Below, piece after piece: positions 1,316 to 15,890 of a stretch of DNA of 15,890 nucleotides. Position numbers and translations under genes: made by a program. Position 1 is the first letter of the stretch. The number at the start of each line of letters is the position of its first letter. The notes under the pieces are model-generated. The model had not been told where the DNA came from. It saw only the letters and a program-made list of their open reading frames with translations, and ran no database searches. Source of the DNA: a virus (taxonomy: Duplodnaviria; Heunggongvirae; Uroviricota; Caudoviricetes); the IMG/VR virus record IMGVR_UViG_2681813004_000014, positions 1 through 15,890 of that record. One strand, written 5' to 3'.

Positions 1316-2529
1316 TCGTCACCGCCCTTACTGTTCTTGCTGATTGTCACTTCCTGCTTCCATGCCTGGCTGAACTCGTCACCACCTTCACGCGGCGGCA
1401 TTCCCTCACGCTCACGGGCTTCGTTCGGATTGATGATCCCGTTCTTAATCCCTTTCTCATACGTGGCGTAACGTTCGGTAGGGGTGGCGCGTAATAAATC
1501 GGCTGAATCAAACTCAACCAGATAACGGGTTCCAGGCACGGGAGAAGCCACCAGCAAAGCGGCCTTGATTTGCTGTTCGAAGTTCGCCAACCAAGGACGC
1601 ATTGTCATGGTCAGAAACGCGCGGCTTGCCTCACTGAAATTGCTGTAGGTGCTGTTGCTGTATTCCTGCAAAAAAATCGGCGAGACGTTGAACATTCGGG
1701 CGATGTCTTCAATGGTAAAGCGACGGGAGGCCAGCCATTCAGCATCCTGATTACTCATGCCCAGCTGCTGATAGCTCATACCCCCTTCAAGGATGGGCGT
1801 TTTTCCGGCGTTTCTGGCCCCTTTGTAGCGTTCCAGTGCGGCTAATGCCTGTTTGCCCTTCACGCCGTCCAGCCATTCGCCTGACGTGATAACCCCTGCC
1901 GCCATCATGCCATCACGCATCACGCTCGCGCCGTGGCGTTGTTGGGCCAGCCCAAGCCCCAGCGATTCGCGGCAGATGGTTACAGGTGAGCGCCCCATAA
2001 AGCCGTCATCCGTGGAGTAACGAAGGTGGAGAACCTCCCACGGTAAATAGTTGCGGGTGTTTCCGGTGTAGGCGTCAGTGATGCAGTAGCGCCAGTTATG
2101 CTCACCTGTCTGCTCCACGTTCACCGACTGCGGCGGGTAAGGATGTAAAGCCACCGGAAAACCATCACGCCCCCACTGAATCACCGCATAAGCATTACCG
2201 TTTAACAGGCAGTGGCGGATCATCATTCGCTTAAACTGGTAGGGGGTTTGCCATGCGTTCGGGCGCTCGTTGAGGATGTGATCGACCGGATGAGAATCAA
2301 GCCACTCGCGGGCCTCCTTCCCCTTCTCATTGCGTACCAGGTACAGGTAACACGGCATGGTAGCCACCGCCTCAGAGATGACCGTCACGGCGTTCATGAC
2401 GGCGGGCAGTGATTCCGCTGTCCCCGATGATACGTACTCACCCGCCCCCGTGTTCGATGTGCCCGCCAGCGCCATAAATTCATCAAGCGTCATGCTGCGC
2501 TGCTCTTTTTTTCTTCTGAAAAGCCACAT
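1312..2529 (-). CDS. Portal protein, HK97 family (copy 1)
   Basis: 405 aa; near-identical to ORF 3552..4760 except the C-terminal tail; immediately upstream of prohead protease. Confidence 0.85.
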   Translation of the reverse strand: MWLFRRKKEQRSMTLDEFMALAGTSNTGAGEYVSSGTAESLPAVMNAVTVISEAVATMPCYLYLVRNEKGKEAREWLDSHPVDHILNERPNAWQTPYQFKRMMIRHCLLNGNAYAVIQWGRDGFPVALHPYPPQSVNVEQTGEHNWRYCITDAYTGNTRNYLPWEVLHLRYSTDDGFMGRSPVTICRESLGLGLAQQRHGASVMRDGMMAAGVITSGEWLDGVKGKQALAALERYKGARNAGKTPILEGGMSYQQLGMSNQDAEWLASRRFTIEDIARMFNVSPIFLQEYSNSTYSNFSEASRAFLTMTMRPWLANFEQQIKAALLVASPVPGTRYLVEFDSADLLRATPTERYATYEKGIKNGIINPNEAREREGMPPREGGDEFSQAWKQEVTISKNSKGGDE

Positions 2530-2530
2530 A

Positions 2531-3103
2531 TCACACCCCCGCTAAATCCACCCACCAGCGGCGATTATCCGCACGCGGCATTTTTTCGGGGTGCTGCTCA
2601 TACAGGGAACGGCGGGCCAGCTCCACGCCGGAATCGGGGTAAGCCGGTACCGATGTAACGGTAATTTCGTACAGTTCCGCCACCAGCACGGTACGAACGC
2701 ATGGATCTGTTGTGGTATCCCATACATCCTTACGGGAGCGAAAGCCAAAGCTCATGCCGGATATATCACCGCGTTTAACCAGTTCGATAACGTCGCGCCC
2801 TGTACTGGTATCCGGTGGGGTCAGTTCAAAGCGTAACCCTGTTTCGTCCTCTTCCAGTTTCAGCGTGCCGGAACGGGTGCGCCCCAGTAACATGCTGTGG
2901 TCATGCTCATACAGGCCGCGAACGTCATTACCCGCCGCAAGCCATTCAGTAAACGCCCCCCGCTGGAATTTTTCGTAAAACTCACCCCATAACAGTTCTG
3001 AAAGCTTATCCCAGCGAACAACGTAGCCCGTCAGCGTACCGGCTCCGCTCGTGGTGATTTCCGATGACCGGATTTCCATACTCTTCATAATTTTTTCACC
3101 CAT
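2531..3103 (-). CDS. Prohead protease, HK97 family (copy 1)
   Basis: 190 aa with DHSMLLGRTRSGTLKL and GMSFGF motifs; identical in protein sequence to ORF 4762..5334. Confidence 0.85.
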   Translation of the reverse strand: MGEKIMKSMEIRSSEITTSGAGTLTGYVVRWDKLSELLWGEFYEKFQRGAFTEWLAAGNDVRGLYEHDHSMLLGRTRSGTLKLEEDETGLRFELTPPDTSTGRDVIELVKRGDISGMSFGFRSRKDVWDTTTDPCVRTVLVAELYEITVTSVPAYPDSGVELARRSLYEQHPEKMPRADNRRWWVDLAGV

Positions 3104-3113
3104 AAAACACTAA

Positions 3114-3131
3114 AGGGGCTTTTAAGCCCCT
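3114..3131 (-). terminator. Hairpin 3' of the capsid-derived ORF (copy 1 of duplicated unit)
   Basis: Inverted repeat aggggct/agcccct with 4-nt loop followed on minus strand by a T-rich run; possible partial terminator or mRNA stabiliser. Confidence 0.3.
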
Positions 3132-3142
3132 TCTGTATGCTG

Positions 3143-3559
3143 TTAATCGTCGTCCTGTGGCAGTTCCAGAATCTTGATCGCGTTCGAATCCACCACGCCA
3201 CCGCCTAAATATTTCTGCGTGAAAATTTTGATGAAGCCCGGCTCTGTGATGTTGTCCGGTCTGGTGCGAACACCTGTTTCGTGATCAACAATGTAGTAAC
3301 CGCGTTTGAAGTCACCCAGGGCAATAACGTTATCAGGCATAAACTCCAGATATTCGACCGGAAGGCCCAGCAACGTATCAGGATCACCCGCCTGTAAACG
3401 GTCGCGCCAGATGTAATCACCGTTCGCGTTCTTCACCTTCTGAAGTTTTGCCGATGACGCGTTTCTTGTATACATTTTCAGAAGTTCGCCTTCTCCGGAA
3501 AAGTCATCAAGGCGAAGATGTGCCCTGACTTCATCAGGTGTAATTTTTTCTTCACTCAT
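3143..3559 (-). pseudogene. Chimeric ORF: gp6-like connector N-terminus (~35 aa) fused in frame to the last ~103 aa of the major capsid protein
   Basis: C-terminal part is identical to the end of capsid ORF 5374..6576; N-terminus MSEEKITPDEVRAHLRLDD resembles the start of connector ORF 684..980; Shine-Dalgarno-like aaggtg sits 6 nt upstream of ATG at 3559. Track ORF extends to 3640 but that region overlaps portal copy 2. Confidence 0.55.
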
Positions 3560-4760
3560 CTTTTTCACCTTTAATTTCCACCGTCTGCTTCCATGCCTGG
3601 CTGAATTCGTCGCCACCTTCACGCGGCGGCATCCCCTCACGTTCGCGGGCTTCGTTCGGATTCATGATCCCGTTCTTAATCCCTTTCTCATACGTGGCGT
3701 AACGTTCGGTAGGGGTGGCGCGTAATAAATCGGCTGAATCAAACTCAACCAGATAACGGGTACCAGGTACGGGAGAAGCCACCAGCAAAGCAGCCTTGAT
3801 TTGCTGTTCGAAGTTCGCCAGCCACGGGCGCATTGTCATGGTCAGAAACGCGCGGCTTGCCTCACTGAAATTGCTGTAGGTGCTGTTGCTGTATTCCTGC
3901 AAAAAAATCGGCGAGACGTTGAACATTCGGGCGATGTCTTCAATGGTAAAGCGACGGGAGGCCAGCCATTCAGCATCCTGATTACTCATGCCCAGCTGCT
4001 GATAGCTCATACCCCCTTCAAGGATGGGCGTTTTTCCGGCGTTTCTGGCCCCTTTGTAGCGTTCCAGTGCGGCTAATGCCTGTTTGCCCTTCACGCCGTC
4101 CAGCCATTCGCCTGACGTGATAACCCCTGCCGCCATCATGCCATCACGCATCACGCTCGCGCCGTGGCGTTGTTGGGCCAGCCCAAGCCCCAGCGATTCG
4201 CGGCAGATGGTTACAGGTGAGCGCCCCATAAAGCCGTCATCCGTGGAGTAACGAAGGTGGAGAACCTCCCACGGTAAATAGTTGCGGGTGTTTCCGGTGT
4301 AGGCGTCAGTGATGCAGTAGCGCCAGTTATGCTCACCTGTCTGCTCCACGTTCACCGACTGCGGCGGGTAAGGATGTAAAGCCACCGGAAAACCATCACG
4401 CCCCCACTGAATCACCGCATAAGCATTACCGTTTAACAGGCAGTGGCGGATCATCATTCGCTTAAACTGGTAGGGGGTTTGCCATGCGTTCGGGCGCTCG
4501 TTGAGGATGTGATCGACCGGATGAGAATCAAGCCACTCGCGGGCCTCCTTCCCCTTCTCATTGCGTACCAGGTACAGGTAACACGGCATGGTAGCCACCG
4601 CCTCAGAGATGACCGTCACGGCGTTCATGACGGCGGGCAGTGATTCCGCTGTCCCCGATGATACGTACTCACCCGCCCCCGTGTTCGATGTGCCCGCCAG
4701 CGCCATAAATTCATCAAGCGTCATGCTGCGCTGCTCTTTTTTTCTTCTGAAAAGCCACAT
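3552..4760 (-). CDS. Portal protein, HK97 family (copy 2)
   Basis: 402 aa; same as copy 1 except a different C-terminal tail (…KQTVEIKGEKDE). Confidence 0.85.
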   Translation of the reverse strand: MWLFRRKKEQRSMTLDEFMALAGTSNTGAGEYVSSGTAESLPAVMNAVTVISEAVATMPCYLYLVRNEKGKEAREWLDSHPVDHILNERPNAWQTPYQFKRMMIRHCLLNGNAYAVIQWGRDGFPVALHPYPPQSVNVEQTGEHNWRYCITDAYTGNTRNYLPWEVLHLRYSTDDGFMGRSPVTICRESLGLGLAQQRHGASVMRDGMMAAGVITSGEWLDGVKGKQALAALERYKGARNAGKTPILEGGMSYQQLGMSNQDAEWLASRRFTIEDIARMFNVSPIFLQEYSNSTYSNFSEASRAFLTMTMRPWLANFEQQIKAALLVASPVPGTRYLVEFDSADLLRATPTERYATYEKGIKNGIMNPNEAREREGMPPREGGDEFSQAWKQTVEIKGEKDE

Positions 4761-4761
4761 A

Positions 4762-5334
4762 TCACACCCCCGCTAAATCCACCCACCAGCGGCGATTATC
4801 CGCACGCGGCATTTTTTCGGGGTGCTGCTCATACAGGGAACGGCGGGCCAGCTCCACGCCGGAATCGGGGTAAGCCGGTACCGATGTAACGGTAATTTCG
4901 TACAGTTCCGCCACCAGCACGGTACGAACGCATGGATCTGTTGTGGTATCCCATACATCCTTACGGGAGCGAAAGCCAAAGCTCATGCCGGATATATCAC
5001 CGCGTTTAACCAGTTCGATAACGTCGCGCCCTGTACTGGTATCCGGTGGGGTCAGTTCAAAGCGTAACCCTGTTTCGTCCTCTTCCAGTTTCAGCGTGCC
5101 GGAACGGGTGCGCCCCAGTAACATGCTGTGGTCATGCTCATACAGGCCGCGAACGTCATTACCCGCCGCAAGCCATTCAGTAAACGCCCCCCGCTGGAAT
5201 TTTTCGTAAAACTCACCCCATAACAGTTCTGAAAGCTTATCCCAGCGAACAACGTAGCCCGTCAGCGTACCGGCTCCGCTCGTGGTGATTTCCGATGACC
5301 GGATTTCCATACTCTTCATAATTTTTTCACCCAT
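4762..5334 (-). CDS. Prohead protease, HK97 family (copy 2)
   Basis: Protein identical to copy 1. Confidence 0.85.
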   Translation of the reverse strand: MGEKIMKSMEIRSSEITTSGAGTLTGYVVRWDKLSELLWGEFYEKFQRGAFTEWLAAGNDVRGLYEHDHSMLLGRTRSGTLKLEEDETGLRFELTPPDTSTGRDVIELVKRGDISGMSFGFRSRKDVWDTTTDPCVRTVLVAELYEITVTSVPAYPDSGVELARRSLYEQHPEKMPRADNRRWWVDLAGV

Positions 5335-5344
5335 AAAACACTAA

Positions 5345-5362
5345 AGGGGCTTTTAAGCCCCT
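5345..5362 (-). terminator. Hairpin 3' of the major capsid gene (copy 2 of duplicated unit)
   Basis: Same inverted repeat as 3114..3131, offset by 2231 bp. Confidence 0.3.
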
Positions 5363-5373
5363 TCTGTATGCTG

Positions 5374-6576
5374 TTAATCGTCGTCCTGTGGCAGTTCCAG
5401 AATCTTGATCGCGTTCGAATCCACCACGCCACCGCCTAAATATTTCTGCGTGAAAATTTTGATGAAGCCCGGCTCTGTGATGTTGTCCGGTCTGGTGCGA
5501 ACACCTGTTTCGTGATCAACAATGTAGTAACCGCGTTTGAAGTCACCCAGGGCAATAACGTTATCAGGCATAAACTCCAGATATTCGACCGGAAGGCCCA
5601 GCAACGTATCAGGATCACCCGCCTGTAAACGGTCGCGCCAGATGTAATCACCGTTCGCGTTCTTCACCTTCTGAAGTTTTGCCGCCGTTGTGGAGTTAAC
5701 CACCCATACCGCGTTCTTGCGGTATTTTTTACGCAATGCAAATTTCAGGTCGATCAGCGGGTCCGCAGATGTCCACGCCAGACCGTGAGCGGGCTTGATA
5801 ACCTGCAACGTTCCGAAGTCGCGTTCTTTGTCGCTCTTCTCTGCACGGGGGACGGATAAAAAGCCTTTTGCTTTTTTGTCACCGTCGCCCACAACCAGAT
5901 CGCTTTCTTCGGTTTCCGTGAAGGTGTCGCCAATCTCGCCCGTCAGCCATGAAAGGATGTCCACATCGGAAAAATCCACGATTTCCTGTGTGGTGCGCGG
6001 GTACGCATAGACCGGATACAGCTTAATGCTCACCTCGTTAATCTTCGGGGTGCTGGTCTGTTCGCGTGCCTTACCCTCTTCACCGTGGTTAACGGTCGCA
6101 CCGCCAGCGGAAACAAGCTGCTTAAACTCGTTGCTGCTGATTTTCTTCACGGTACAGATGCGGCGCATGGTGGATTCATCCGCCAGTATTCGCATGATTT
6201 CGGTGTTCAGTTCGGGGATAACGGTATAACCACCATCAGCGGCAACGCCTGTACTTAATGCGCGGGTTTCACCTGTCAGAATGTAGTTGCGTAGTTCTGC
6301 GGGGTCAGTGGTCTGACTGCTTTTACCTGGCTTGCTGCGCTCTTCGTCTGCAATGGCTTCAAGGCGGGAAATGTCTTTATCGAGGGATTCAGCTTTAGCG
6401 CGTAATTCGTCAAATTTTGCGCCCTCAGCATCGTTAAGACTGCGGTTTTCTTTTTCCGCGTTCTCCAGCATGTCGCGCATCTGATTTTTAATGGCGGTTT
6501 TCTGCTGGCGTAATTCGATTATTCTCGGCATAAAAAAAAGTCCTGGGGTTAAGTAAGGAACTCCAGGACGCGACAA
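5374..6576 (-). CDS. Major capsid protein, HK97 family, with N-terminal coiled-coil delta domain
   Basis: 400 aa; N-terminal heptad-rich segment (IIELRQQKTAIKNQMRDMLENAEKE…) then a capsid-like body. Track start at 6576 is a TTG; an ATG at 6531 (MPRIIELRQQ) is an alternative start. Confidence 0.85.
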   Translation of the reverse strand: MSRPGVPYLTPGLFFMPRIIELRQQKTAIKNQMRDMLENAEKENRSLNDAEGAKFDELRAKAESLDKDISRLEAIADEERSKPGKSSQTTDPAELRNYILTGETRALSTGVAADGGYTVIPELNTEIMRILADESTMRRICTVKKISSNEFKQLVSAGGATVNHGEEGKAREQTSTPKINEVSIKLYPVYAYPRTTQEIVDFSDVDILSWLTGEIGDTFTETEESDLVVGDGDKKAKGFLSVPRAEKSDKERDFGTLQVIKPAHGLAWTSADPLIDLKFALRKKYRKNAVWVVNSTTAAKLQKVKNANGDYIWRDRLQAGDPDTLLGLPVEYLEFMPDNVIALGDFKRGYYIVDHETGVRTRPDNITEPGFIKIFTQKYLGGGVVDSNAIKILELPQDDD

Positions 6577-6902
6577 ACACTCAACCGTTTTTCATAAGGA
6601 AATCAGCAATCGCACCGATCGTTTTCCCGCCTGGTAATGAATATTGGCGAGCACATTAACAGGCGGTAAAGTGGCCCCAGCGTCCTGGCACCACGGGCGA
6701 GAATAATCATGATTCAGTTCGGGTAAAATATGCCGATCCGCTCAGTGAACAACCTGGAACAACCACGAACAAATAATTTACAAAACCTGAAAAAATAAAT
6801 AAGCTGTTCCGTACATTTTCTGCTCGTTAATCAGGAGGAACGAACTATGTCAGAAAATGAACTGAAAAAAGCAATGTTCATTCAGCAACACTTCTAAAAA
6901 TA

Positions 6903-6928
6903 ATGGCCTGGAAAATACCAGGCCATTA
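6903..6928. terminator. Bidirectional terminator-like hairpin
   Basis: Inverted repeat aatggcctgg / ccaggccatt with 6-nt loop; T-rich run follows on the minus strand directly after the stop of ORF 6934..7182. Confidence 0.45.
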
Positions 6929-6933
6929 TTATT

Positions 6934-7182
6934 CTACCGTTTCACGGGATCACGCATTCTGCGCCTTATTTTCCACAGATATTCGATCATCGCTTCCACC
7001 TGCTCACGGTTGGTTGCGAAAATTTCCCCGGTCAGTGAGCTGCGCAGAAAATCATTATGATCCACAAAAAATAACGCATCGGAAGAAAGCAGACGGCGAT
7101 ATTTTTTTGCTGTCGTGGTTTCCAGATCATCAAAACCATGAAACTTTTTATGTTGCTGGACTTCTTCAAATGTCACTGGCAT
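6934..7182 (-). CDS. Hypothetical protein (~82 aa)
   Basis: Track ORF 6934..7221; the internal ATG at 7182 is preceded by aggagg at 7-nt spacing, so it is the preferred start. No recognised motif. Confidence 0.5.
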   Translation of the reverse strand: MPVTFEEVQQHKKFHGFDDLETTTAKKYRRLLSSDALFFVDHNDFLRSSLTGEIFATNREQVEAMIEYLWKIRRRMRDPVKR

Positions 7183-7227
7183 GTTTCCTCCTGCTGCCAC
7201 GATACCAGAAACAGTTAACAACCGTTA

Positions 7228-7509
7228 TCAATTATCCCTTTTTTTCGGGTAGTTCCTGAACATCTCACCGCCAGGTTTCTGTAAGCCAATCCCGGTATGT
7301 GTGCGGTTTATGGCCTCTTTCAGTATTCCGAAATTATCCGGTATGACTGGTGGGCGTGCTGCCTTACGGATACATTCCGCGCGACGCTTTGCCACTTGTT
7401 CGCGCTCCTTGTCAGTGCTCACCAGCCACATAACATCAGCCCAACGTGCCGCCGCTCTCCGGTACAGCCCTTTAGCCTCCAGTTCTTCCGCTTTGCTGTC
7501 TTTAATCAT
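7228..7509 (-). CDS. PerC-like transcriptional regulator (putative)
   Basis: ~93 aa starting MIKDSKAEELEAKGLYRRAAARWADVM, a pattern I associate with PerC-family prophage regulators; gaggt lies 5-6 nt upstream of ATG 7509. Assignment is from memory of the family. Confidence 0.5.
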   Translation of the reverse strand: MIKDSKAEELEAKGLYRRAAARWADVMWLVSTDKEREQVAKRRAECIRKAARPPVIPDNFGILKEAINRTHTGIGLQKPGGEMFRNYPKKRDN

Positions 7510-7543
7510 GCTGTACCTCACTGCTTAAAACGGTATCCCGTCC

Positions 7544-7815
7544 CCGTACGGATCATCGTGCTGGCCTGTCTGTTGTTTTGCCCTGTTCAGTGCGTCAGTA
7601 GCCTGGCCCTGCTGGCCTTTTTTGCCGCCCGGTCGCACTGTCCGCGCACTGATTACGCTGTCTGCGATGACCTGCCAGCCCGTACGGATCATCGTGCTGG
7701 CCTGTCTGTTGTTTTGCCCTGTTCAGTGCGTCAGTGGCCTGGCCCTGTTGACCTTTTTTGCCGCCCGGTCGCGCCGTTCGCGCACTGATTACGCTGTCTG
7801 CGATAACCTGCCAGC
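7544..7815. repeat. Tandem 136 bp duplication (2 copies, a few mismatches) at the 3' end of ssb
   Basis: 7544..7679 and 7680..7815 align at a 136 bp offset with a handful of substitutions. Confidence 0.85.
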
Positions 7816-8086
7816 CCTGCCGCGTTTCGCCGTTCTGGCCTGTCCACTGGCTTACCTGCATGTTACCCGCCACGCTCACCAGTTCGCCTTTCTGGTGTTT
7901 TGCCAGTGCCTCGGCCTGTCTGCCAAACGCCAGGACGGATAACCACATCGTCGCCGTTCCGTCATCTGCCTGGCTGCACGGAAGGGGGACCGCCATACTC
8001 GCCATCGCCATTTGTGTCCCCTTGCTGGTCTGTTTTACCTGCGGGTCAGCCACCAGCCGCCCGTAAGCTGCTATCTGTGCTGTCAT
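7595..8086 (-). CDS. ssb: Single-stranded DNA-binding protein with frameshifted C-terminus
   Basis: N-terminal OB-fold-like region (…TMWLSVLAFGRQAEALAKHQKGELVSVAGNMQVSQW…). The 136 bp duplication is not a multiple of 3, so the ORF ends in an out-of-frame tail; the canonical ending …HDDPYGDGIPF* is present in another frame, stopping at 7526. Confidence 0.7.
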   Translation of the reverse strand: MTAQIAAYGRLVADPQVKQTSKGTQMAMASMAVPLPCSQADDGTATMWLSVLAFGRQAEALAKHQKGELVSVAGNMQVSQWTGQNGETRQGWQVIADSVISARTARPGGKKGQQGQATDALNRAKQQTGQHDDPYGLAGHRRQRNQCADSATGRQKRPAGPGY

Positions 8087-8334
8087 GCTGTCTGCTCTCC
8101 GGTTTTAACGTTGATGGTTGTTACCTGTTCCGCTCCGGCAATCTCCCGTTGTGTCAGCGTGGCAAAGTTTGCCGCCGCTGTGGTCATGAATGCGCTAATC
8201 AGTTCGGGATGCGCTTTCGCGTATCCTTCTCCGGCGTGGCGGTCTATCGTTCTGATTGCCACCTTTAAGGCGTGCTCTGTCATGTCTAACGCTTTATATT
8301 TTGGCGCTGTCTTATCTCTGGTTTTTCTGTTCAT
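8083..8334 (-). CDS. Hypothetical protein (start uncertain: 8364, 8334 or 8283)
   Basis: Track ORF 8083..8364; the 5' part lies inside the iteron array, so a later start is more plausible. Stop overlaps ssb start. Confidence 0.4.
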   Translation of the reverse strand: MNRKTRDKTAPKYKALDMTEHALKVAIRTIDRHAGEGYAKAHPELISAFMTTAAANFATLTQREIAGAEQVTTINVKTGEQTA

Positions 8335-8550
8335 TCCCCACCACTCCCCACTTTTGCTCCCCACTTTTTAAATTCCCCACTTGCTCCCCACCTCGTTTTT
8401 TGAGTGAATGTAATGCTTTGTTTTTCATTGCGTTTTTTACTCCCCACTTTTTTGGATGTATACAGGTGGGAAAGTGGGGAATTATGTTTCAATTTTGTTA
8501 AATTCCCCACTCTCCCCACTTTTACTACCCACTTTTTACAGTGGGTAAAC
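8334..8550. repeat. Iteron array, putative replication origin
   Basis: At least 9 direct copies of (t)tccccac(tttt), inverted copies near 8463-8482, an AT-rich spacer around 8394-8440, and a palindrome tacccac…gtgggta at 8526-8546; directly 3' of the replication gene. Confidence 0.6.
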
Positions 8551-9942
8551 ATCATCCCCATCGACACAAATCACGCCGTCTTTTTCCAGCTTGGACAGCC
8601 AGCGCCGGAAGTGCTTCATCTCATACCCCAGCTTTTTCATATCGTCGCGGAGAAGGGCGATAGTGCATGGCTCTTTGTGTGCCGTCCGCGTTCTGATGCA
8701 CTGCCATAGCGCGGCGTGATTCTCCGATTTGTTGCCTGCTTCCTCGATGCGCTCCAGTTCAGCAGGGGCGCGGGGAACGTCAATCACCACCATAGACACA
8801 ATCTCTTCCCCATCGGTATCGGTAAACACCTCCACGCTTTTAAGGTCGTATGCACTCTCTTTTGGCTCCTCTGCGTCCTTCATCTTCGTACACGCCGCCA
8901 CCAGTGCTGTAACGTCTGAATTTTCCCGGCTGATTCGGTACTCTGCATCAAGCGCGGCACGGAATGCGCTGGAACCACGCGCCCCCTTTGTTTCATCCTT
9001 GCCGGAATGGTGAACCACCAGCACCGTGGCCCCTGTGGCCTGCTTTATCGCGTCACACCCCTGGATAAATGCGCCCATATCACGGGAATCATTTTCATCA
9101 TTCCCACCAAAGCAACGGGCCAGTGTGTCGATCACAATCAGCCGCACATTTTCGCCCGTTCTGCTCTTAACAAGTCCGGCAGTCCTGATAACCTGCTCCA
9201 CATAGTCAGGCGATGCAGGGAAAACAGGCGCGTTAATGATGCACAAATCTGTAACCACCTTGTCGTGGGTTATCTCCCACGCCTTAACGCGGCGTTTTAC
9301 GCCCATACTGCCTTCGCCAGCGATATAGATAACCGCGCCCTTACTCACCCTGCGGCCTCCCCATGCCATACCTGTGGCAACATGGCACGACCAGGAAATG
9401 GCGAGGAACGATTTATAAGAACCGCTGGCCCCGTAGGTGCTGCATAATGACTCAGCCGGAATAAGCCCCTTAATGACGTAGCTTTGCTGCGCGTCGAATC
9501 CCTCAGAACCCCATGAGATGGGAAGCGTGATTTTTCTCTTTCCGCCATTCATGACCAGGCTTTCCCCTCTCTCCCATGTTTCCCGTAGTCGTGGTAGCTG
9601 GTCGCTCCAGTCCTCAAGCAGTTCGAAATTTTCAGAAAGTAGCCGCGCCTCCTGGACTCCGGCGATCGCCAGTTTTGTGGCAATGGTCAGCATCTGCATA
9701 TCGTCCAGGTTTCCGGCGCGTATGACCTTTACCCTGTATCGTCCTTCATCAACAATCTGTAAGTTGTCCAGTTCGCTTAACTGATAACGGCCCAGGTAAA
9801 CCGGAGGGATGGGATCGCCTGCTTTTTTGGCCTGTGCAATCATGTAATGTTCTGCAAAGGAGTGAGCATTATCACCCGCAAAAATAACCGCCTCAGTGTG
9901 TTTATCTTTCGGTAACAGTTTTACGTTCGGTGCAAGTTTCAT
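8536..9942 (-). CDS. Replication protein with RecA/RepA-like P-loop ATPase domain (putative primase-helicase)
   Basis: 468 aa; Walker A-like YGASGSYKSF, Walker B-like RLIVIDTLARCFGGNDEND, then VLVVHHSGKD…RGSSA, as in RepA/AAA_25-type replicative ATPases. Confidence 0.75.
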   Translation of the reverse strand: MKLAPNVKLLPKDKHTEAVIFAGDNAHSFAEHYMIAQAKKAGDPIPPVYLGRYQLSELDNLQIVDEGRYRVKVIRAGNLDDMQMLTIATKLAIAGVQEARLLSENFELLEDWSDQLPRLRETWERGESLVMNGGKRKITLPISWGSEGFDAQQSYVIKGLIPAESLCSTYGASGSYKSFLAISWSCHVATGMAWGGRRVSKGAVIYIAGEGSMGVKRRVKAWEITHDKVVTDLCIINAPVFPASPDYVEQVIRTAGLVKSRTGENVRLIVIDTLARCFGGNDENDSRDMGAFIQGCDAIKQATGATVLVVHHSGKDETKGARGSSAFRAALDAEYRISRENSDVTALVAACTKMKDAEEPKESAYDLKSVEVFTDTDGEEIVSMVVIDVPRAPAELERIEEAGNKSENHAALWQCIRTRTAHKEPCTIALLRDDMKKLGYEMKHFRRWLSKLEKDGVICVDGDDVYPL

Positions 9943-10226
9943 TTCTTACCCCCTGCGACCAGCATTTCACGGATTTTGCGGATATAACTTGCAGCACGTT
10001 TCTGATTAACGGCTTTACGATGGCCCACCAGCGTGAAATCACGCCGGAACTGATAAACAGGCATAACGCAGTCATATTCGTAGCCATCACGGCGGTAAGT
10101 GATGCGCCGTTCCTCCACGCCCTTAATCATTACCGTGCCGCCGTAGTTATCACGGAAAATATCGCCGGGACGGATTTCAGGACGAGCGGGGCCGCTGGCA
10201 TTAACGCCAGAATTTTTATTTTTCAT
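9939..10226 (-). CDS. Hypothetical protein (95 aa)
   Basis: ORF in the early operon with 4-bp overlap to the replication gene; no recognised motif. Confidence 0.5.
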   Translation of the reverse strand: MKNKNSGVNASGPARPEIRPGDIFRDNYGGTVMIKGVEERRITYRRDGYEYDCVMPVYQFRRDFTLVGHRKAVNQKRAASYIRKIREMLVAGGKK

Positions 10227-10231
10227 GTTTT

Positions 10232-10465
10232 TTATTCTCCGGTGTGCTGTTCTTTATATCTGTCGTGCAATAGGTCTATTTCCTGCAACTCTGTTATTAC
10301 AGGTTCAAGGAGAGTTATCAGAGATTTAATAATCCGCGCATTCTTTACATCACGCTCATTATCGCCAAATGTATCTGGATACATTTGCAATATTTCGTAC
10401 ATGCCTTCAGCGTAAGCAAGGGCACTAAATGCGCGGTCTATTGTTTCGTGGTAAATATCACGCAT
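10232..10465 (-). CDS. Hypothetical protein (77 aa)
   Basis: Tightly packed ORF in the same operon; no recognised motif. Confidence 0.45.
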   Translation of the reverse strand: MRDIYHETIDRAFSALAYAEGMYEILQMYPDTFGDNERDVKNARIIKSLITLLEPVITELQEIDLLHDRYKEQHTGE

Positions 10466-10466
10466 A

Positions 10467-11021
10467 TTAATCCCCGTCCGTCGTTTTTCTTAAAACAGTT
10501 TCCGTTACGAAATCAGCATAGTTAGCGGCGATATCAAGAATATTTAGCCCTGTATCCCTGTGCTCATCAGTGCAAAGAAAGAAAAAAGCCACCCGCATAA
10601 TTTCAGATATTGACGAAAGCGCATCAGCCGCATTATCAGGAACGCCGGAAAATTCCTGTTTCAGGGAATTAAAACGATCATCACGCATAACCCCCCCATT
10701 TTCACAATCAGCAATCAGGATGGCTTTAGCCTCATTCAGCGCCATATCAGCGGTTAGCTGTGCGTAGGCCAGCGAATGCGGGATTATTGCCCCTGTATAT
10801 TCCGGCTCTCTGGTAATGTGTTTTTCTGCGGTTGCTGCCGTGCATGAAATATCAATCAGCGCGTGCATTAGCGTTATGATGGCTTCGGCGGCTGCGTCCG
10901 GACGGATCTCTCTGGTAATGTGTTTTTCTGCGGTTGCTGCCGTGCATGAAATATCAATCAGCGCGTGCATTAGCGTTATGATGGCTTCGGCGGCTGCGTC
11001 CGGACGGATGTTATTGCACAT
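10467..11021 (-). CDS. Hypothetical protein (184 aa) with internal duplicated 34 aa segment
   Basis: Contains IRPDAAAEAIITLMHALIDISCTAATAEKHITRE twice in tandem. Confidence 0.5.
   Translation of the reverse strand: MCNNIRPDAAAEAIITLMHALIDISCTAATAEKHITREIRPDAAAEAIITLMHALIDISCTAATAEKHITREPEYTGAIIPHSLAYAQLTADMALNEAKAILIADCENGGVMRDDRFNSLKQEFSGVPDNAADALSSISEIMRVAFFFLCTDEHRDTGLNILDIAANYADFVTETVLRKTTDGD
10806..11009. repeat. Perfect tandem 102 bp duplication, in frame
   Basis: 10806..10907 is identical to 10908..11009. Confidence 0.85.
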
Positions 11022-11379
11022 GGCGCACCCCCTGAATAACCTGATATCCGCAACTGGTCAGCAATTCGATAAATTCCGGCAGTGTGCCGAAACAGCAATC
11101 ATCACGCAGCCGTTCGCAGGATACCTCGACGCCGTTTTCGTAGTGACTCACCATACATCCGGTAAAATGCAGATCATCATCGTGATGGCTCGTTGACGGT
11201 TTCATCAGTCGCGCACGTTCCGCCAGTTCAAGCAATGCTTCAACGCTTCCGGCAATTGCACCATCCGGCAGGTGATAATTACTTACTACGCGTCCATTCT
11301 CTACATTGACGAGTAGCTGTCCGGTAAATTTCTCACGAAACTGAACGCGGTTAAGATCGGTAAGTGACAGGTTAATCAT
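11011..11379 (-). CDS. Hypothetical protein (~122 aa)
   Basis: Internal ATG at 11379 (MINLSLTDLNRVQ…) is preceded by aggggg at about 7 nt; track ORF extends to 11496 but overlaps the upstream gene. Confidence 0.5.
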   Translation of the reverse strand: MINLSLTDLNRVQFREKFTGQLLVNVENGRVVSNYHLPDGAIAGSVEALLELAERARLMKPSTSHHDDDLHFTGCMVSHYENGVEVSCERLRDDCCFGTLPEFIELLTSCGYQVIQGVRHVQ

Positions 11380-11568
11380 GGTACACCCCCTGACGAATAC
11401 GGGCAGCGAATACAGCGACACAACCGGACGGGCAACGGTTACGCGCTTCGCGTTCTGTCCAGGCGGTGACGTGGATGATTTGGGATTCTCCGGCACTCAG
11501 TGCCAGAAAACGCCACACAAAGGCCGTTTGTGTGTGCGCTAGGCGTGGGGTATGCTGTTTTACAGCCA
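11372..11568 (-). CDS. Hypothetical small protein (~65 aa), first gene of the early operon
   Basis: ATG at 11568 with agaggt 7 nt upstream; MAVKQHTPRLAHTQTAFVWRFLAL…; the long track ORF 11372..12199 is rejected. Any resemblance to Icd-like small proteins is unverified. Confidence 0.4.
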
Positions 11569-11768
11569 TAATCGTTACCTCTTTTAACGGTTTGGTTAGA
11601 CGCCCCGTTACTGCTCCAACAGTACGGGGCTTCGTCGTTTCAATTGCTGAATTGCATATATCAGCCCTTGTGGTATTCAGATTACATTTAGGTGAATACC
11701 ATTTCAAGTCTTTTTTGGTATTCACTTTTGTATTACACTGCATCCCGTTATTAATCGGAGGTGCAAAT
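11569..11768. promoter_or_regulatory. Divergent promoter/operator region between the early operon and the RHH gene
   Basis: Half-site GGTATTCA at 11672-11679, its inverted copy at 11693-11700 (13 bp spacer) and a third copy at 11717-11724; imperfect hairpin at 11602-11630. Confidence 0.5.
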
Positions 11769-12074
11769 ATGTCCACGAGTTCTGTTAACAATAAGTCACA
11801 GCAACTGAATGCCAGATTTCCACATGAAGTAGTGAGTGGCATTGAGGCATCCCTACAGCCAGGGGAAACTAAAGCGAATTTTATAGTTACGGCTGTACGC
11901 GGTGAGATCGCCCGCCGCCAAGCAGAAGGAAGAAGAGAAAATCCCCTGGTTTCTTCGCTCGATGCACTGGCGCAGGTGGAAAAAATCGGTGTCAAAGCTG
12001 CCGAGGAGATCGGGCAACTCGTCGCCGTTGCGCGTGAAGAACTCCAGCGGCGCAAAGCCAAAGAACAGGAATAG
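11769..12074 (+). CDS. Ribbon-helix-helix-like DNA-binding protein (candidate island repressor)
   Basis: ggagg 8 nt upstream of ATG 11769; N-terminal region (…ARFPHEVVSGIEASL…FIVTAVRGEIARRQ) resembles Arc/CopG-type RHH; the only plus-strand island gene, divergent from the early operon. Confidence 0.55.
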   Translation: MSTSSVNNKSQQLNARFPHEVVSGIEASLQPGETKANFIVTAVRGEIARRQAEGRRENPLVSSLDALAQVEKIGVKAAEEIGQLVAVAREELQRRKAKEQE

Positions 12075-12162
12075 CCCACCAGCAAGCCAGCACACTGATC
12101 ACATTGCCCACCAGCCAGCAAACCGCTATGATGGCCGGGCTTATGTTTAGTGTTTTCCCATT

Positions 12163-12190
12163 GGCGACCGCCCCCGGTCGCCTTTGTTTT
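12163..12190 (+). terminator. Rho-independent terminator
   Basis: GC-rich hairpin ggcgaccg-cccc-cggtcgcc followed by tttgtttt, downstream of the RHH gene. Confidence 0.6.
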
Positions 12191-12209
12191 ATGTGCCATA
12201 TACTCCCCT

Positions 12210-12434
12210 TTACGCTGCCTTGCCTGAATTAATGCGATCCCGGCTTTTAACCCATTCCATAACCTCGGACAGCAGCCAACCTACAGAACGACCGCCCAGA
12301 TTAAGGCGTGACGGAAATCGCCCTTTTTTCTCCAGTTCGTAGCGTGTAGTGCGACACACTCCAGTTAACTTACGACATTCATCCTCACGGATTACGCGAT
12401 CTGATAGTGATTGAAATTGTGTATTTTGATTCAT
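12210..12434 (-). CDS. alpA: AlpA-family transcriptional regulator
   Basis: 74 aa; …CRKLTGVCRTTRYELEKKGRFPSRLNLGGRSVGWLLSEVMEWV matches the AlpA HTH pattern of CP4-57-type islands. Confidence 0.85.
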   Translation of the reverse strand: MNQNTQFQSLSDRVIREDECRKLTGVCRTTRYELEKKGRFPSRLNLGGRSVGWLLSEVMEWVKSRDRINSGKAA

Positions 12435-12528
12435 AAAAAACGTCCTCGAACGTTGCCGAACGAGGACGATTCTAGACGGTGGTAAAACGCCGTTTGTGTG
12501 ATATCACATTATCGGTACGTGATATCAC
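12435..12528 (-). promoter_or_regulatory. alpA leader hairpin plus two palindromic operator-like sites
   Basis: Hairpin 12441-12468 (cgtcctcg…cgaggacg) followed on the minus strand by TTTTTT and the alpA ATG; the right arm contains the only GAGGA upstream of alpA. Palindrome GTGATATCAC occurs at 12498-12507 and 12519-12528, centres 21 bp apart. Confidence 0.45.
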
Positions 12529-13244
12529 TTTTTGCGTTTTTGTTGAGATTCACGCCCCAAATACTTTTGCCATGTCTGCCAATGTGTTTTGGGAAATTCT
12601 ATCCCTCTGGATGCAGCTATAGAATCAATTAAATCTGCTATTTTAGGTAATGATTCCGTGTCTAGGTCTACATCACCCATTTCTGGAATAAGTTTAATTA
12701 AAGAGTAAATAACCTCATTCCTTTTTGCTGCTCTTTTGGGGTTATCTTCTGTAAGATTACGAAAACTACCTTCATCTTTTACATTATTTAAATCATCTGC
12801 CATCACACATAAATAATCAACATCTATATCAAATGGCTTGAGATTTTCCCCTTCTGGAGTTATTTCTAATCCACCGCCAAGTCTATCAGGGTAAAAATAT
12901 AATGTTGGTGAGCTTATGATGTTATTATGTTTAAACTCAATATCAGAGAACGCCTTTTTGTTTACATAGAAAAAACCAGCAATAAAATTTGCTATATATA
13001 ATCTATCATCTATTTCCTTCTCTAAATTAATTGTTTTGCCGTCCTGGAATATTAGTCCATTCCGTTTATTATCTTTAAATCCCTCAAGAAAATAAACCTC
13101 ACAGTTCCCAACACTATGCTCAGGAATAAATACAGAAATATCAATGGCACCTGTACTAGCGAAATGATAGAGATCCCTTATTGTACATCCTAACTTTTCT
13201 GCCGCTTCAGGTAACGGATAATAGAGTCTTTTAGGTAATTTCAT
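12525..13244 (-). CDS. Low-GC cargo protein of unknown function, possible N-terminal HTH
   Basis: 239 aa; markedly AT-rich compared with flanking int and alpA; N-terminus LPEAAEKLGCTIRDLYHFASTGAI resembles excisionase/MerR-type HTH; 4-bp overlap with int stop. Confidence 0.7.
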   Translation of the reverse strand: MKLPKRLYYPLPEAAEKLGCTIRDLYHFASTGAIDISVFIPEHSVGNCEVYFLEGFKDNKRNGLIFQDGKTINLEKEIDDRLYIANFIAGFFYVNKKAFSDIEFKHNNIISSPTLYFYPDRLGGGLEITPEGENLKPFDIDVDYLCVMADDLNNVKDEGSFRNLTEDNPKRAAKRNEVIYSLIKLIPEMGDVDLDTESLPKIADLIDSIAASRGIEFPKTHWQTWQKYLGRESQQKRKK

Positions 13245-14461
13245 TTAGCCACCTTCAGCATAACAATATTTTCATGATTTCCAGCCAGCACATCAAGACG
13301 CTCAACCCACAGATTCAACGCGTCCCGCTTTGCCTGTAAATAGCGTGAATGGTTATAGGTTTTTTGCTGACCGGGCATCTGATGCGCTGTGATGTGCTCC
13401 ACGATATGCGGATCGACACCTAAATCGTTCAGCATCGTTGTAAACGTGTGGCGAAAGTCATGCAGCGTCCAGTGTTCCTGGTTAAGCCGCTTATGCGCAT
13501 TTCGCCCATATTGCGCTACCGTGGTATCTTTTTTCAGTTCTCCGAGTAATAACCCTGTATGCCGGTTCTTCTCCACCAGCTTCTGAATGAACGGCAAAAT
13601 GCCATCGGGGATTGGCCTGAATATCGTTACCTTCGTTTTGCTATGCTCTTTTGGCACTGTCCACAACATTTCTTTCAGATCCCATTCTTTGATCTCTGAA
13701 AGTCTGACCTCTGCCGTTCTGCACCCGAACACAATCAGCAAGCGCATTAACGCGCTGTAGTAAGGCGCGAACACATCACCATCGATAGCGCGTAAAATTT
13801 CCTTTAATTCGCTGTTACTGTGCACCCTCTCGCGAATTTCTGCTCTCTTACCCACATCGCTGACGATCAAATCGTCCAGGGCATTACTGAACGCGTAGCG
13901 CCTCCTGCGGCAGAACTTTAGCGCCTGTTTGCAGGTTTGCATGACGTGCCCTGCTGCTACTGGTGCTTTTTTTCGTACACGGTCAAAACATGCGATCCAC
14001 TGCCTTGTATCGCATTTATCAAGAGGAATTGCCCCTATATGGCAAATGATGTGCTTATCCATACGTTGCACCAGCTTTATGTAGTCTTTGCGGTTACCCT
14101 TCGCATATTCATCCAGCCAGTAGTTAATCGCCTCCTTCACCGTAACGGGTTTTAGCGCTTCCTGTACTGTGGCGCACAACTCATAACGGGGGTTTTTACC
14201 CTCAGCCAGCCATGCCCGGCACTGTGCGCGTTTTTCCCTTGCAGCTTTCAGCGACAATTCAGGGTAAGCCCCCAGCTTTAACCGCTCTGCGGCAACCTCA
14301 CGGCCTCCCGTTCGGTACCGGAAATACCAGGTTAATTTGCCGCCCTTTGAGTGTTTAATCTCCAGCCCGCCCCCGTCGGAGTAAAAACGCTCTTTTTCTG
14401 CCTGGACAGCCGCCAATTTTTTTAACGTCGAATCGCTCAGTTTGTTTAGTGCTTTTCCCAC
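13241..14461 (-). CDS. int: Tyrosine integrase, P4-like
   Basis: 406 aa with catalytic-region pattern …LHDFRHTFTTMLNDLGVDPHIVEHITAHQ…YNHSRY; located at the island edge. Confidence 0.9.
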   Translation of the reverse strand: MGKALNKLSDSTLKKLAAVQAEKERFYSDGGGLEIKHSKGGKLTWYFRYRTGGREVAAERLKLGAYPELSLKAAREKRAQCRAWLAEGKNPRYELCATVQEALKPVTVKEAINYWLDEYAKGNRKDYIKLVQRMDKHIICHIGAIPLDKCDTRQWIACFDRVRKKAPVAAGHVMQTCKQALKFCRRRRYAFSNALDDLIVSDVGKRAEIRERVHSNSELKEILRAIDGDVFAPYYSALMRLLIVFGCRTAEVRLSEIKEWDLKEMLWTVPKEHSKTKVTIFRPIPDGILPFIQKLVEKNRHTGLLLGELKKDTTVAQYGRNAHKRLNQEHWTLHDFRHTFTTMLNDLGVDPHIVEHITAHQMPGQQKTYNHSRYLQAKRDALNLWVERLDVLAGNHENIVMLKVAK

Positions 14462-14489
14462 TATCAGATCCTCTTTTCAGTCCTCCAGC

Positions 14490-14640
14490 CTCAAAAAACT
14501 GACCACACAACTGACCACACATTTCGTTGAAGCTCTACGAACAACGACGAACAATAACAAACAAGAAAACGAAACATTCCATTTAATATCAAATACATAT
14601 CCAAACAACCACGAACAACCCCGAACCACAAAAAACACTA
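14490..14640. promoter_or_regulatory. A/C-rich repeat region upstream of int
   Basis: Direct repeat aactgaccacac x2 (14497-14520), multiple gaacaa units, and the 15-mer AACAACCACGAACAA (14604-14618) that also occurs at 6758-6772. Confidence 0.3.
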
Positions 14641-14790
14641 AATGAGAAAATACGGGTATTTCTCAGCCTTCACGCAGAAGGGCACCCCGAGTCGTTTGGT
14701 TGCGATGATAAATCGCAGAGGAGGATGGTAATGTCCAGCGCACGCGTTGTAAACGAGGAAAAACGGCAGTATTACAATCGCGTTAATAAA

Positions 14791-15063
14791 TTATTTGATA
14801 TATGAATCCAGCACCTTCAGAACGACATCCAGATCTTCTTCACGTTTTAGCTCATCCCCCTGGTGAACGATGTGTTCCGTCAGATGACCTTTAATCACTT
14901 CCCGCATCAGACCGTTTACCGCGCCACGGATAGCAGCAATCTGTTGTAAAACTGCAGCGCATTCGTGCGGCTCGTCGAGCATTTTCTTGAGCGCCACGAC
15001 CTGGCCCTGAATCTTACTGGCACGCGCTTTCAGTTTCTGTTTATCACGGATTGTATGAGACAT
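14791..15063 (-). CDS. rcnR: Ni/Co-responsive transcriptional repressor RcnR
   Basis: 90 aa [56 protein letters not shown]… recognised as RcnR; divergent from rcnA. Confidence 0.9.
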
Positions 15064-15111
15064 GGCAACACCTGGTTAACAAGAATATGAAAAATCATAG
15101 CACTATTAATC

Positions 15112-15146
15112 TACTGGGGGGTAGTATCAGGTACTGGGGGGGAGTA
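15112..15146. promoter_or_regulatory. RcnR operator sites in the rcnR-rcnA intergenic region
   Basis: TACT-G6-T-AGTA at 15112-15126 and TACT-G7-AGTA at 15132-15146, matching the established RcnR recognition motif. Confidence 0.75.
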
Positions 15147-15183
15147 GAATCAGATTGCCGAATTAATACTAAGAATTATTATC

Positions 15184-15864
15184 ATGACCGAATTTACAAC
15201 TCTTCTTCAGCAAGGAAACGCCTGGTTCTTCATCCCCAGCGCCATCTTACTTGGTGCGCTTCATGGCCTGGAACCAGGGCACTCAAAAACGATGATGGCG
15301 GCGTTTATCATCGCCATCAAAGGCACCATTAAACAAGCGGTGATGCTCGGACTGGCAGCAACTATTTCGCATACCGCAGTGGTCTGGTTAATTGCCTTTG
15401 GCGGGATGGTGATCAGTAAGCGCTTTACTGCTCAATCAGCAGAACCGTGGCTCCAGCTGATTTCCGCAGTGATCATTATTAGCACCGCGTTCTGGATGTT
15501 CTGGCGTACCTGGCGCGGCGAACGCAACTGGCTGGAGAATATGCACGGGCATGATTATGAGCATCATCATCACGATCACGAAGATCACCACGACCATGGA
15601 CATCATCACCATCACGAACATGGCGAGTATCAGGATGCCCATGCACGAGCCCATGCCAATGATATTAAACGACGCTTTGATGGTAGAGAGGTCACCAACT
15701 GGCAAATTTTGTTATTTGGCTTAACAGGTGGTCTTATCCCCTGTCCGGCAGCAATTACCGTGCTGTTGATTTGCATTCAGTTGAAAGCCCTGACACTGGG
15801 CGCAACACTGGTCGTCAGTTTCAGCATTGGCCTGGCGGGTAATGCTGCCAACTTACTGATTTAG
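15184..15864 (+). pseudogene. rcnA: Nickel/cobalt efflux protein RcnA, interrupted by IS1
   Basis: N-terminus and His-rich loop (HGHDYEHHHHDHEDHHDHGHHHHHEHGEYQDAH) match RcnA; after …SFSIGLA the reading frame runs into IS1 terminal sequence and stops early (226 aa, shorter than intact RcnA). Confidence 0.85.
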
Positions 15865-15890
15865 TGTATGATGGTGTTTTTGAGGTGCTC
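15839..15890 (+). mobile_element. IS1 terminal inverted repeat and adjacent sequence (partial, runs off window)
   Basis: ggtaatgctgccaacttactgatttagtgtatgatggtgtttttgaggtgctc matches the IS1 end as I recall it, with one variant base. Confidence 0.85.

Follow-up and report, generated by a model that had tools for sequence, protein, structure and literature searches.

The 90-nt leader that separates the int-X operon from alpA in a 15,890-nt viral sequence (IMG/VR record IMGVR_UViG_2681813004_000014, positions 1 to 15,890; this whole stretch is referred to below as the window) appears to be a gate in two parts that controls the master activator of a capsid-forming phage-inducible chromosomal island (cf-PICI), a reading to which we give a probability of roughly 0.6. 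One part is an RNA hairpin that holds the Shine-Dalgarno (SD) sequence of alpA in its 3' arm, and the other is a pair of perfect palindromes further upstream that are likely to be bound by a protein. The genes are read on the minus strand in the order int, X (encoding an uncharacterised protein of 239 aa), the leader and alpA, with a 4-nt overlap (ATGA) between the stop of int and the start of X. The features on which the argument draws are as follows.

12528-12519, read on the minus strand: palindrome P1, GTGATATCAC, which contains the stop codon TGA of X (12527-12525).
12507-12498, read on the minus strand: palindrome P2, GTGATATCAC, which extends to the 12-bp TGTGATATCACA with its flanks.
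12474..12469, minus strand: -10-like hexamer TAGAAT, directly before the 5' arm; possibly a promoter element of alpA, or else the A-rich flank of the terminator.
12468-12441, minus strand: RNA hairpin with 5' arm CGTCCTCG (12468-12461), a 12-nt apical part and 3' arm CGAGGACG (12448-12441).
12447-12443, minus strand: SD motif GAGGA in the 3' arm, the sole SD-like motif of the 90-nt leader.
12440-12435, minus strand: T6 run (the U-tract of the RNA), abutting the stem without a gap and doubling as the spacer between SD and AUG.
12210..12434, minus strand: alpA, 74 aa, master activator and excisionase-family regulator (Pfam PF05930 Phage_AlpA, E = 2e-16).
12525..13244, minus strand: X, 239 aa, uncharacterised and a candidate binder of the palindromes; the gene ends inside P1.
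13241..14461, minus strand: int, tyrosine integrase, 406 aa (Pfam Arm-DNA-bind_3 and Phage_integrase).

An original prediction made from the letters of the window had placed the hairpin, the T6 run, the alpA ATG (at 12434), the only GAGGA and both palindromes at these positions, and the minus-strand reading agrees with it throughout. The two perfect 10-bp palindromes are separated by a spacer of 11 nt, with their centres 21 bp apart as described, and the end of P2 lies 63 nt from the ATG; P2 is followed by 29 nt that end in TAGAAT and then by the hairpin. The hairpin itself folds into an 8-bp stem (CGUCCUCG/CGAGGACG, with six G-C pairs), a 2x2 U.U internal loop, a 2-bp stem and a GCAA tetraloop. 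None of these elements is common by chance in sequence of this composition. Folding of the leader, which had been suggested as a check, gave -43.2 kcal/mol over 126 nt, compared with -21.5 +/- 3.4 for shuffled sequences (z = -6.4, with 0 of 200 shuffles as stable), and the hairpin alone contributes a structure of -17.0 kcal/mol. Sites that combine a perfect 8-bp GC-rich stem, a loop of at most 12 nt and then at least five T in six are expected 0.02 times per shuffled window and were observed three times, the alpA hairpin among them. Exact copies of GTGATATCAC number two in the 15.9-kb window, and allowing up to one mismatch gives three matches, a number reached by none of 200 shuffles.

Leaders were collected from complete E. 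coli genomes, IMG/VR, metagenomes and contigs encoding homologues of X, and their comparison indicates that the hairpin is a selected, conserved RNA structure of the sense strand. Across 11 diverged leaders with a hairpin of the window's type (type 1), drawn from five genera, 95.5% of alignment cells pair, compared with 34-47% when the partners are slid. Compensatory (two-sided) changes are present in five of the ten pairs, in 12 cells, and the observed covariation was reached by 0 of 500 shuffles. Across Escherichia, Salmonella, Klebsiella, Citrobacter and Trabulsiella the hairpin persists despite differing arms, which in type 1 read CGTCCTCG/CGAGGACG, CGCCCTCG/CGAGGGC, GCTCTCG/CGAGGGC, GCCCTTG/CGAGGGT, GCTCCTG/CAGGAGC, CCACCTG/CAGGTGG and GCCCTTGT/ACAAGGGC, and in a second type GGCTCCTTACG/CGTAAGGAGC. 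Wobble pairs are U.G in the alpA-sense RNA, where the antisense RNA would give C.A, and because they can pair in the alpA-sense RNA alone, the structure would act in sense transcripts. The apical 12 nt also follow a pattern across relatives, with a 2x2 U.U or A.A internal loop, a 2-bp stem that co-varies from GC to AU and a tetraloop; the length is conserved, the mini-stem is CG/CG or CA/TG, and loop position 3 is C in 11 of 11. A covariance search against Rfam 15 found no family for the hairpin, the sole hit in 11800-13000 being a chance match to a small nucleolar RNA (E = 0.09) that lies elsewhere. A hairpin variant in leaders L177, L178 and L182 has a 19-nt apical part in place of 12 nt, on the stem GCCCTCG/CGAGGGC; palindromes of the TGGAAGTTCCA type lie upstream of it, and P2 and the hairpin remain 28 nt apart.

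Two functions had been proposed for this hairpin, occlusion of alpA translation and termination of transcripts reading through from int and a cargo gene, and the comparison separates them. Occlusion is borne out: the structure under selection buries the alpA SD, for which the probability of being unpaired is ~0 in the modelled read-through RNA, and every variant carries an SD motif (GAGG, AGGAG, AAGGG or AGGUGG) in its 3' arm, at 4-9 nt from the AUG, with stem and AUG separated by 6-8 nt in type 1 and by 4 nt in type 2. Termination holds in part. The 8-bp GC stem followed by U6 is placed to stop int/cargo read-through, an A-rich 5' flank can extend the stem, and the anatomy in the window is that of a canonical intrinsic terminator, but termination is not the conserved core. 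T37-39 and T41 never vary across the type-1 alignment. The U-tract of relatives ranges from U7 to AUUAGAUU, with degenerate runs in Klebsiella L103 (GUUUAUCA), L162 (AUUAGAUU) and L166 (AUUUAAAU), and the type-2 hairpins (L109 and L111; fold z = -6.0 and -4.2) have no U-run, AAUA or AGUA standing before the AUG. Since the U-run degrades or vanishes in relatives, occlusion of the ribosome-binding site (RBS) would be the universal feature and termination a frequent addition. By its anatomy, the hairpin of the window would be both terminator and RBS mask, and we infer from that anatomy that it does terminate. A terminator scan with an 8-nt loop limit made no call here, and the hairpin was missed because that limit is shorter than the 12-nt apical part.

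The same observations bear on a simpler proposal, that the hairpin is merely the rho-independent terminator of the int-X operon and that its overlap with the RBS is incidental packing. The stem, the U6 and the A-rich flank are all that such a terminator would need, and in the island EcCIMP1 a hairpin resembling a terminator stands on its own between int and alpA, ~110 nt upstream of the latter. Even so, we regard the proposal as improbable: leaders L109, L111 (both type 2), L162 and L166 are without a usable U-run, yet in each the 3' arm carries the SD, at an unchanged distance from the AUG, the SD falls within the stem in all variants, and the distance from stem to AUG is fixed within each type.

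The distribution of the hairpin suggests what it is for. It is present in every leader in which alpA abuts an int-coupled open reading frame (ORF), whether this encodes X or an unrelated DUF6387 protein, and an SD-hairpin was found solely where an ORF in translational coupling with int precedes alpA by 53-103 nt. No significant structure was detected at the alpA start of islands with long gene-free int-alpA spacers, namely EcCICFT073 (365 bp), EcCIMP1 (~427 bp) and the cspD-site islands (~410 bp), for which fold z = -0.45, +0.77 and +0.6. This limitation to int-coupled upstream ORFs points to insulation from int-X transcripts, and the simplest reading, by analogy with IS200, is that the hairpin insulates alpA from read-through of the int operon. 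According to PMC6092414, AlpA auto-activates and its overproduction drives uncontrolled replication of the island. Insulation, if true, explains how a positive-feedback activator stays off 90 nt behind a constitutively expressed operon. In some sister islands (L003 1947-2942, L004 2073-2927, L179, L181 and L184), X is replaced by the unrelated DUF6387 protein, the gene for which also overlaps int at its start; the alpA hairpin is kept in these islands, the leaders are AT-rich and the palindromes are missing. The DUF6387 protein may be an alternative regulator or true cargo.

The palindromes, for their part, behave as protein-binding sites and are likely a candidate operator pair for a dimeric DNA-binding protein. 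In 11 diverged X-type leaders, the mean pairwise identity is 98% for P1 and 97% for P2, and 38% for the 11-nt spacer and 36% for the next 22 nt. The spacer is 11 nt in relatives, with 10 in Klebsiella and 12 in L111, so that the centres are spaced by 20-22 bp, and the end of P2 is 62-64 nt from the ATG in 14 distinct leaders. The long-loop variant L177 keeps the distance from P2 to the hairpin and does not keep that from P2 to the ATG. Distant relatives have other palindromes at the same positions, GGGAATTCCC in L107 and L109 and GGAATTTCC in L110. The original prediction had read the pair as the operator of a dimeric repressor. Near-invariant sites amid drifting flanks speak for an operator; that its ligand is a repressor is not established, the position of the sites also fitting class-II activation.

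In RNAfold structures of the window and of several relatives, P1 is paired with P2, as would be expected if the palindromes acted as RNA, forming a hairpin of 10-12 bp at the 3' end of the X message that stabilises the mRNA or marks a processing site. This we consider very unlikely. An RNA stem needs no self-complementary arms, which arise by chance ~1 time in 1000 per arm, and the fixed 21-bp phasing fits the helical repeat of DNA. Further, P1 of Klebsiella (GTGAATTCAC) carries a double change that leaves it a perfect palindrome, with dyad symmetry preserved, and its RNA complementarity to P2 is gone (GTGATATCCC), the stem being lost from the minimum free energy structure. Recognition of DNA is therefore favoured over an RNA stem, because the dyad was kept where the complementarity was lost.

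If the palindromes are operators, X is likely what binds them. A G/C-containing perfect 10-bp palindrome is present in 17 of the 21 distinct leaders with X, the other four having imperfect ones, and in 0 of the 27 without X, and it is this specific co-occurrence that makes X the prime candidate. An AlphaFold model of X (pLDDT 82) divides into a winged helix (beta-alpha-alpha-beta) at the N-terminus, a beta-barrel and, at the C-terminus, a helical domain, and the predicted N-terminal fold is a winged helix of the MerR/Xis/AlpA type. The model thus agrees with an earlier description of the 239-aa product as a DNA-binding-type protein. Its description as cargo does not survive, because every member of the family is coupled to int in translation, with alpA following, the order int, X, alpA being constant in Escherichia, Salmonella, Klebsiella, Citrobacter, Trabulsiella and others. 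The family is small (24 clusters, in Enterobacterales). X had no match in Pfam, PHROGs, NCBIfam, PADLOC or BFVD, and no homologues were found in 50,697 phage genomes.

Binding of the palindromes by something other than X, such as AlpA in an autoregulatory circuit, a host factor or a regulator of the helper phage, seems to us rather unlikely. AlpA activates its own promoter in EcCICFT073 (PMC6092414), the half-sites TGTGA/TCACA look like those of CRP, and changes in the palindrome are not matched by changes in the recognition helix of X. Against AlpA stand the sister islands at the rcnR site, in which Int is 96% and AlpA 91% identical, DUF6387 takes the place of X and the palindromes are absent; their absence beside near-identical Int and AlpA disfavours either protein as the binder. 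CRP needs half-sites spaced by 6 bp, and here they are spaced by 2 bp. More broadly, identification of the palindromes as sites for CRP, Fur or FNR, or as a lambda operator, was rejected by eye for misfits of half-site spacing or sequence. A paired-motif scan of IMG/VR for the same operator in helper phages returned 63 contigs, in which the enterobacterial matches were all PICI leaders with no helper-type phages among them, and the phages searched had no homologues of X.

The large group among those 63 contigs consists of unrelated AT-rich gut phages with arrays of TGATATCA. These contigs (L112, L115-L118, L120-L121 and ~35 more from IMG/VR, of 35-60 kb) have dense TGATATCA/GTGATATCAC arrays near a repeated 'tgtgccttat', and apparently another phage group uses this same palindrome of 8-10 bp as an iteron or operator. 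Arrays of GTGATATCAC also occur in the high-GC phage contigs L145, L147 and L159-L161. A full-text literature search for GTGATATCAC matched primers alone. In the int-alpA spacer of EcCICFT073 (L054 8190-8260 and 8440-8500), repeats of AACAACG and GACACAA stand instead of hairpin and palindromes, and are candidate binding repeats for AlpA or Int; the accessible portions of the PICI papers PMC6092414 and PMC11773190 make no mention of such repeats.

Where transcription of alpA starts is the part of the gate on which we are most tentative. Scans with a sigma-70 position weight matrix (PWM) found no strong promoter in the leader of the window and none that is consistent across leader types. The hexamer abutting the 5' arm is the sole element of the leader with promoter-like conservation. 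It reads TAGAAT, TACAAT, CAAAAT, CAATAT, CACTAT, GACAAT or TTAAAT in the leaders and TAGGCT in type 2, and in every X-type leader, type-2 and long-loop hairpins included, its last T is the 28th or 29th base after P2. If TAGAAT is taken as a -10, P2 is centred at ~-40.5 and P1 at ~-61.5, positions that fit class-II activation as well as occlusion of a -35, and the start falls at ~12462, at the end of the 5' arm. It is possible, though less likely than not, that alpA transcripts start there, inside the hairpin; transcripts truncated in silico to begin at 12463-12458 have an open SD. Two other candidates in the leader were rejected. A -10 in the P1-P2 spacer (GATAAT) is not conserved, the relatives having GGTAGT, ACTCAG or AAGCAA. 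The other was a leader peptide: the upstream ORF in question, of 11 codons, opens with GTG, takes the TAG of TAGAAT as its stop and lacks an SD, and neither its length nor its stop is conserved (L122, L162, L168 and L101).

In the two-part gate as we picture it, read-through transcripts from the int-X operon would carry both arms, and the -17 kcal/mol hairpin would form in them. Here, such read-through would terminate at the U6, and any transcript that escaped termination would have its only SD buried, so that expression of the int operon would yield no AlpA. The palindromes would serve as paired operators two helical turns apart, most likely bound by X, and would gate transcription of alpA from a weak, -35-less promoter with its -10 at 12474-12469. 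On our preferred reading of the start, transcripts would begin at ~12462, and because these lack the anti-SD arm they would be neither terminated nor translationally blocked. The dual-level control of alpA that had been suggested is thus partly supported, by an SD-masking hairpin and palindromes of the protein-binding kind, with the labels of repressor and cargo revised.

Several observations weigh against this gate. The apical part, at 12 nt, is longer than usual terminator loops (3-8 nt), and U-runs are weak or absent in some relatives. As a candidate promoter, TAGAAT is without a -35 and has a poor PWM score (3.6 bits), and this A-rich hexamer can equally be an A-tract that pairs with the U-run of the terminator. 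Several leaders of the DUF6387 type have better promoter-like matches upstream of the hairpin, and the alpA mRNA of those islands may include the whole hairpin. Finally, the N-terminal recognition helix of X is nearly invariant though the palindromes of some relatives differ (the GGGAATTCCC and GGAATTTCC forms); X may bind through another domain, or may not be the binder.

An alternative is that the hairpin is a regulated attenuator carried on the alpA message itself, with the promoter lying at the palindromes or further upstream, or with P_int as the promoter. A factor of the helper or the island (an antiterminator, an RNA-binding protein or a small RNA) would then open or bypass the hairpin on induction, which would consist largely of anti-termination and unmasking of the SD. 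The strongest PWM matches lie upstream of the hairpin in several related leaders, the apical part is conserved beyond the needs of a bare terminator (in length, C at position 3, mini-stem and tetraloop), and helper phages induce alpA by a route that PMC6092414 gives as unidentified. We nevertheless hold an attenuator to be unlikely. A trans-acting RNA complementary to the 5' arm was searched for in the window and gave chance-level matches only, no nut or boxB-like motif was seen by eye, and Rfam offered no family. Further, the hairpin is absent from EcCICFT073 and EcCIMP1, islands in which helper induction has been demonstrated. AlpA as the antiterminator of its own leader was rejected on homology, the protein here being of the 74-aa excisionase type and unrelated to the Q-like AlpA antiterminator of P. 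aeruginosa.

Returning to the operator half of the gate, a more specific and rather speculative version of it, which we think has only a small chance of being right, makes X the helper-phage-responsive regulator of this subfamily of Gram-negative PICIs, a functional counterpart of Stl in the Staphylococcus aureus pathogenicity islands (SaPIs). X would be made constitutively with the integrase and would occupy the palindromes at ~-41 and ~-62 of a -35-less promoter nested within the hairpin, and alpA would stay off until a helper signal, perhaps sensed by the beta-barrel, switched X, all other transcripts being terminated and untranslatable.

By its gene content, the window is a cf-PICI of the EcCIEDL933 type adjoining rcnR. 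The class is defined in bioRxiv 10.1101/2022.09.08.507074, and in a comparison made without the small and large terminase genes, Pfam matched int, alpA, a replication gene, capsid, protease, portal, connector and HNH. The other genes of the window encode DUF4222, an AAA_25 helicase, a single-stranded DNA-binding protein (SSB), capsid, prohead protease, portal, connector, head-completion and HNH proteins. The int-X-alpA segment is 99.2% identical in E. coli PKF11 (locus L001), where RefSeq labels the first gene a site-specific integrase and its label for alpA gives the same gene identity; the sole match of the window AlpA in the PDB is 8c3t, an AlpA-family excisionase (E = 6e-8). The role of alpA as master activator of the island is taken from PMC6092414. 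The PKF11 leader is 100% identical to that of the window, and in 52 other complete genomes, including strains of O157:H7, O145:H28, O103:H2 and O121, identity is at most 97.7% and mostly 96.6%. Sakai and EDL933 are absent among the 55 full-length leader matches. The leader family extends to islands of Salmonella and Klebsiella. An AlpA scan of GTDB genomes gave only four loci, all distant. The islands are mosaic, and the points at which recombination has joined different island types fall at the hairpin or inside it.

Some further features of the window were noted in passing. A 70-bp stretch upstream of int (14495-14564) recurs at 98.6% at the far end of the PKF11 island (L001 23542-23611) and most probably represents the att repeat of islands that have inserted between rcnR and thiM. 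A tandem duplication of ~2231 bp at ~94% identity (1312-5334) gives the window two portal genes (1312-2529 and 3552-4760) and two genes for the prohead protease (2531-3103 and 4762-5334), and two diverged copies of both are unusual in a 15-kb satellite. There are also two shorter tandem duplications. One, of 136 bp x2 at 95% identity (7543-7814), overlaps the start of the SSB-like ORF region; the other, a perfect 102 bp x2 (10806-11009), falls within an ORF at 10467-11021 that has two stretches of similarity to phrog_2512. Recent slippage may have produced them, or they may serve as iterons or an origin. On the plus strand, a gene for 101 aa (~11770-12074; phrog_6522, E = 7e-44) is probably convergent with alpA and is followed by a plus-strand terminator at 12163-12182, with arms GGCGACCG/CGGTCGCC and then the T-rich TTTGTTTTAT; a minus-strand ORF of 275 aa in the region 11372-12199, in which family matches are limited to the last ~90 residues (Icd-like), is probably over-called. 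A strong hairpin at 6903-6926, AATGGCCTGG tatttt CCAGGCCATT, has T-runs on both sides and separates the replication module from the capsid gene. It resembles a bidirectional terminator and likely marks the early/late boundary of the island.

The closest known arrangement is the left end of IS200, where a terminator guards against impinging transcription and a stem-loop in the 5' untranslated region of tnpA sequesters the SD (PMC4513863). In both cases, a mobile element would shield its own mobilisation gene by termination and SD burial. IS200 uses two separate inverted repeats together with an antisense small RNA and Hfq, whereas in the alpA leader one hairpin would do both jobs. The alpA leader also faces transcription from its own int-X operon, and a search of the window found no antisense RNA. 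Fold-back inhibition in IS10 and IS50, reportedly described by Davis, Simons and Kleckner in 1985, is said to act through read-through transcripts that hide the transposase start, with the element's own promoter inside the repeat. The logic would be the same if the TAGAAT promoter is real, since solely transcripts starting inside the inverted repeat would then lack the anti-SD arm and be translatable. Unlike those elements, the alpA hairpin adds a U-run, its putative promoter would be operator-gated, and its start is a predicted one.

Among PICIs, EcCICFT073 and EcCIMP1 share with the window the order of int then alpA and an alpA that acts as master activator, silent until helper induction and served by its own promoter region, which responds to the helper and to AlpA. 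They differ in having long spacers, without X, without GTGATATCAC palindromes and without an SD-hairpin. In the accessible parts of PMC6092414 and PMC11773190, the alpA promoter region is described as a reporter fragment only, its cis elements undissected, and the helper-encoded inducer of alpA is stated to be unknown in the former and still cited so in the latter. With SaPI Stl, as summarised in PMC6092414, the shared element would be an island DNA-binding protein, encoded near int, that holds the activation module until a helper signal arrives; X differs in being co-directional with and coupled to int rather than divergent from the regulated operon, and in belonging to no detectable annotated family. 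The AlpA of P. aeruginosa is a Q-like processive antiterminator that acts on a terminator (PMC9371919, PMC7969949). What it has in common with the window is a gene name and a terminator adjoining a gene called alpA. It is larger, with functional residues 128-142, a Q-like fold and a C-terminal helix-turn-helix, in contrast to the 74-aa PF05930 protein of the window, and its terminator sits downstream of the promoter of the target operon and not before alpA.

The leader thus supplies three conserved parts that can be mutated, namely an SD-burying terminator hairpin, a phased candidate operator pair and X, and they bear on how Gram-negative PICIs stay silent until a helper phage arrives. If the hairpin is merely a damper and X irrelevant, what is left is an ordinary terminator with an RBS hairpin; if the gate is true, it is a compact insulator of the type 'only my own promoter counts', open to synthetic use. 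Terminators, SD-masking hairpins and phased palindromic operators are each of a familiar kind. What is new is that a terminator and an SD mask are fused directly on the master activator of a PICI, that the hairpin is restricted to islands with an int-coupled upstream gene and the operator pair is phase-locked to it, and that the arrangement is associated with a previously unnoticed, island-specific winged-helix protein, X.

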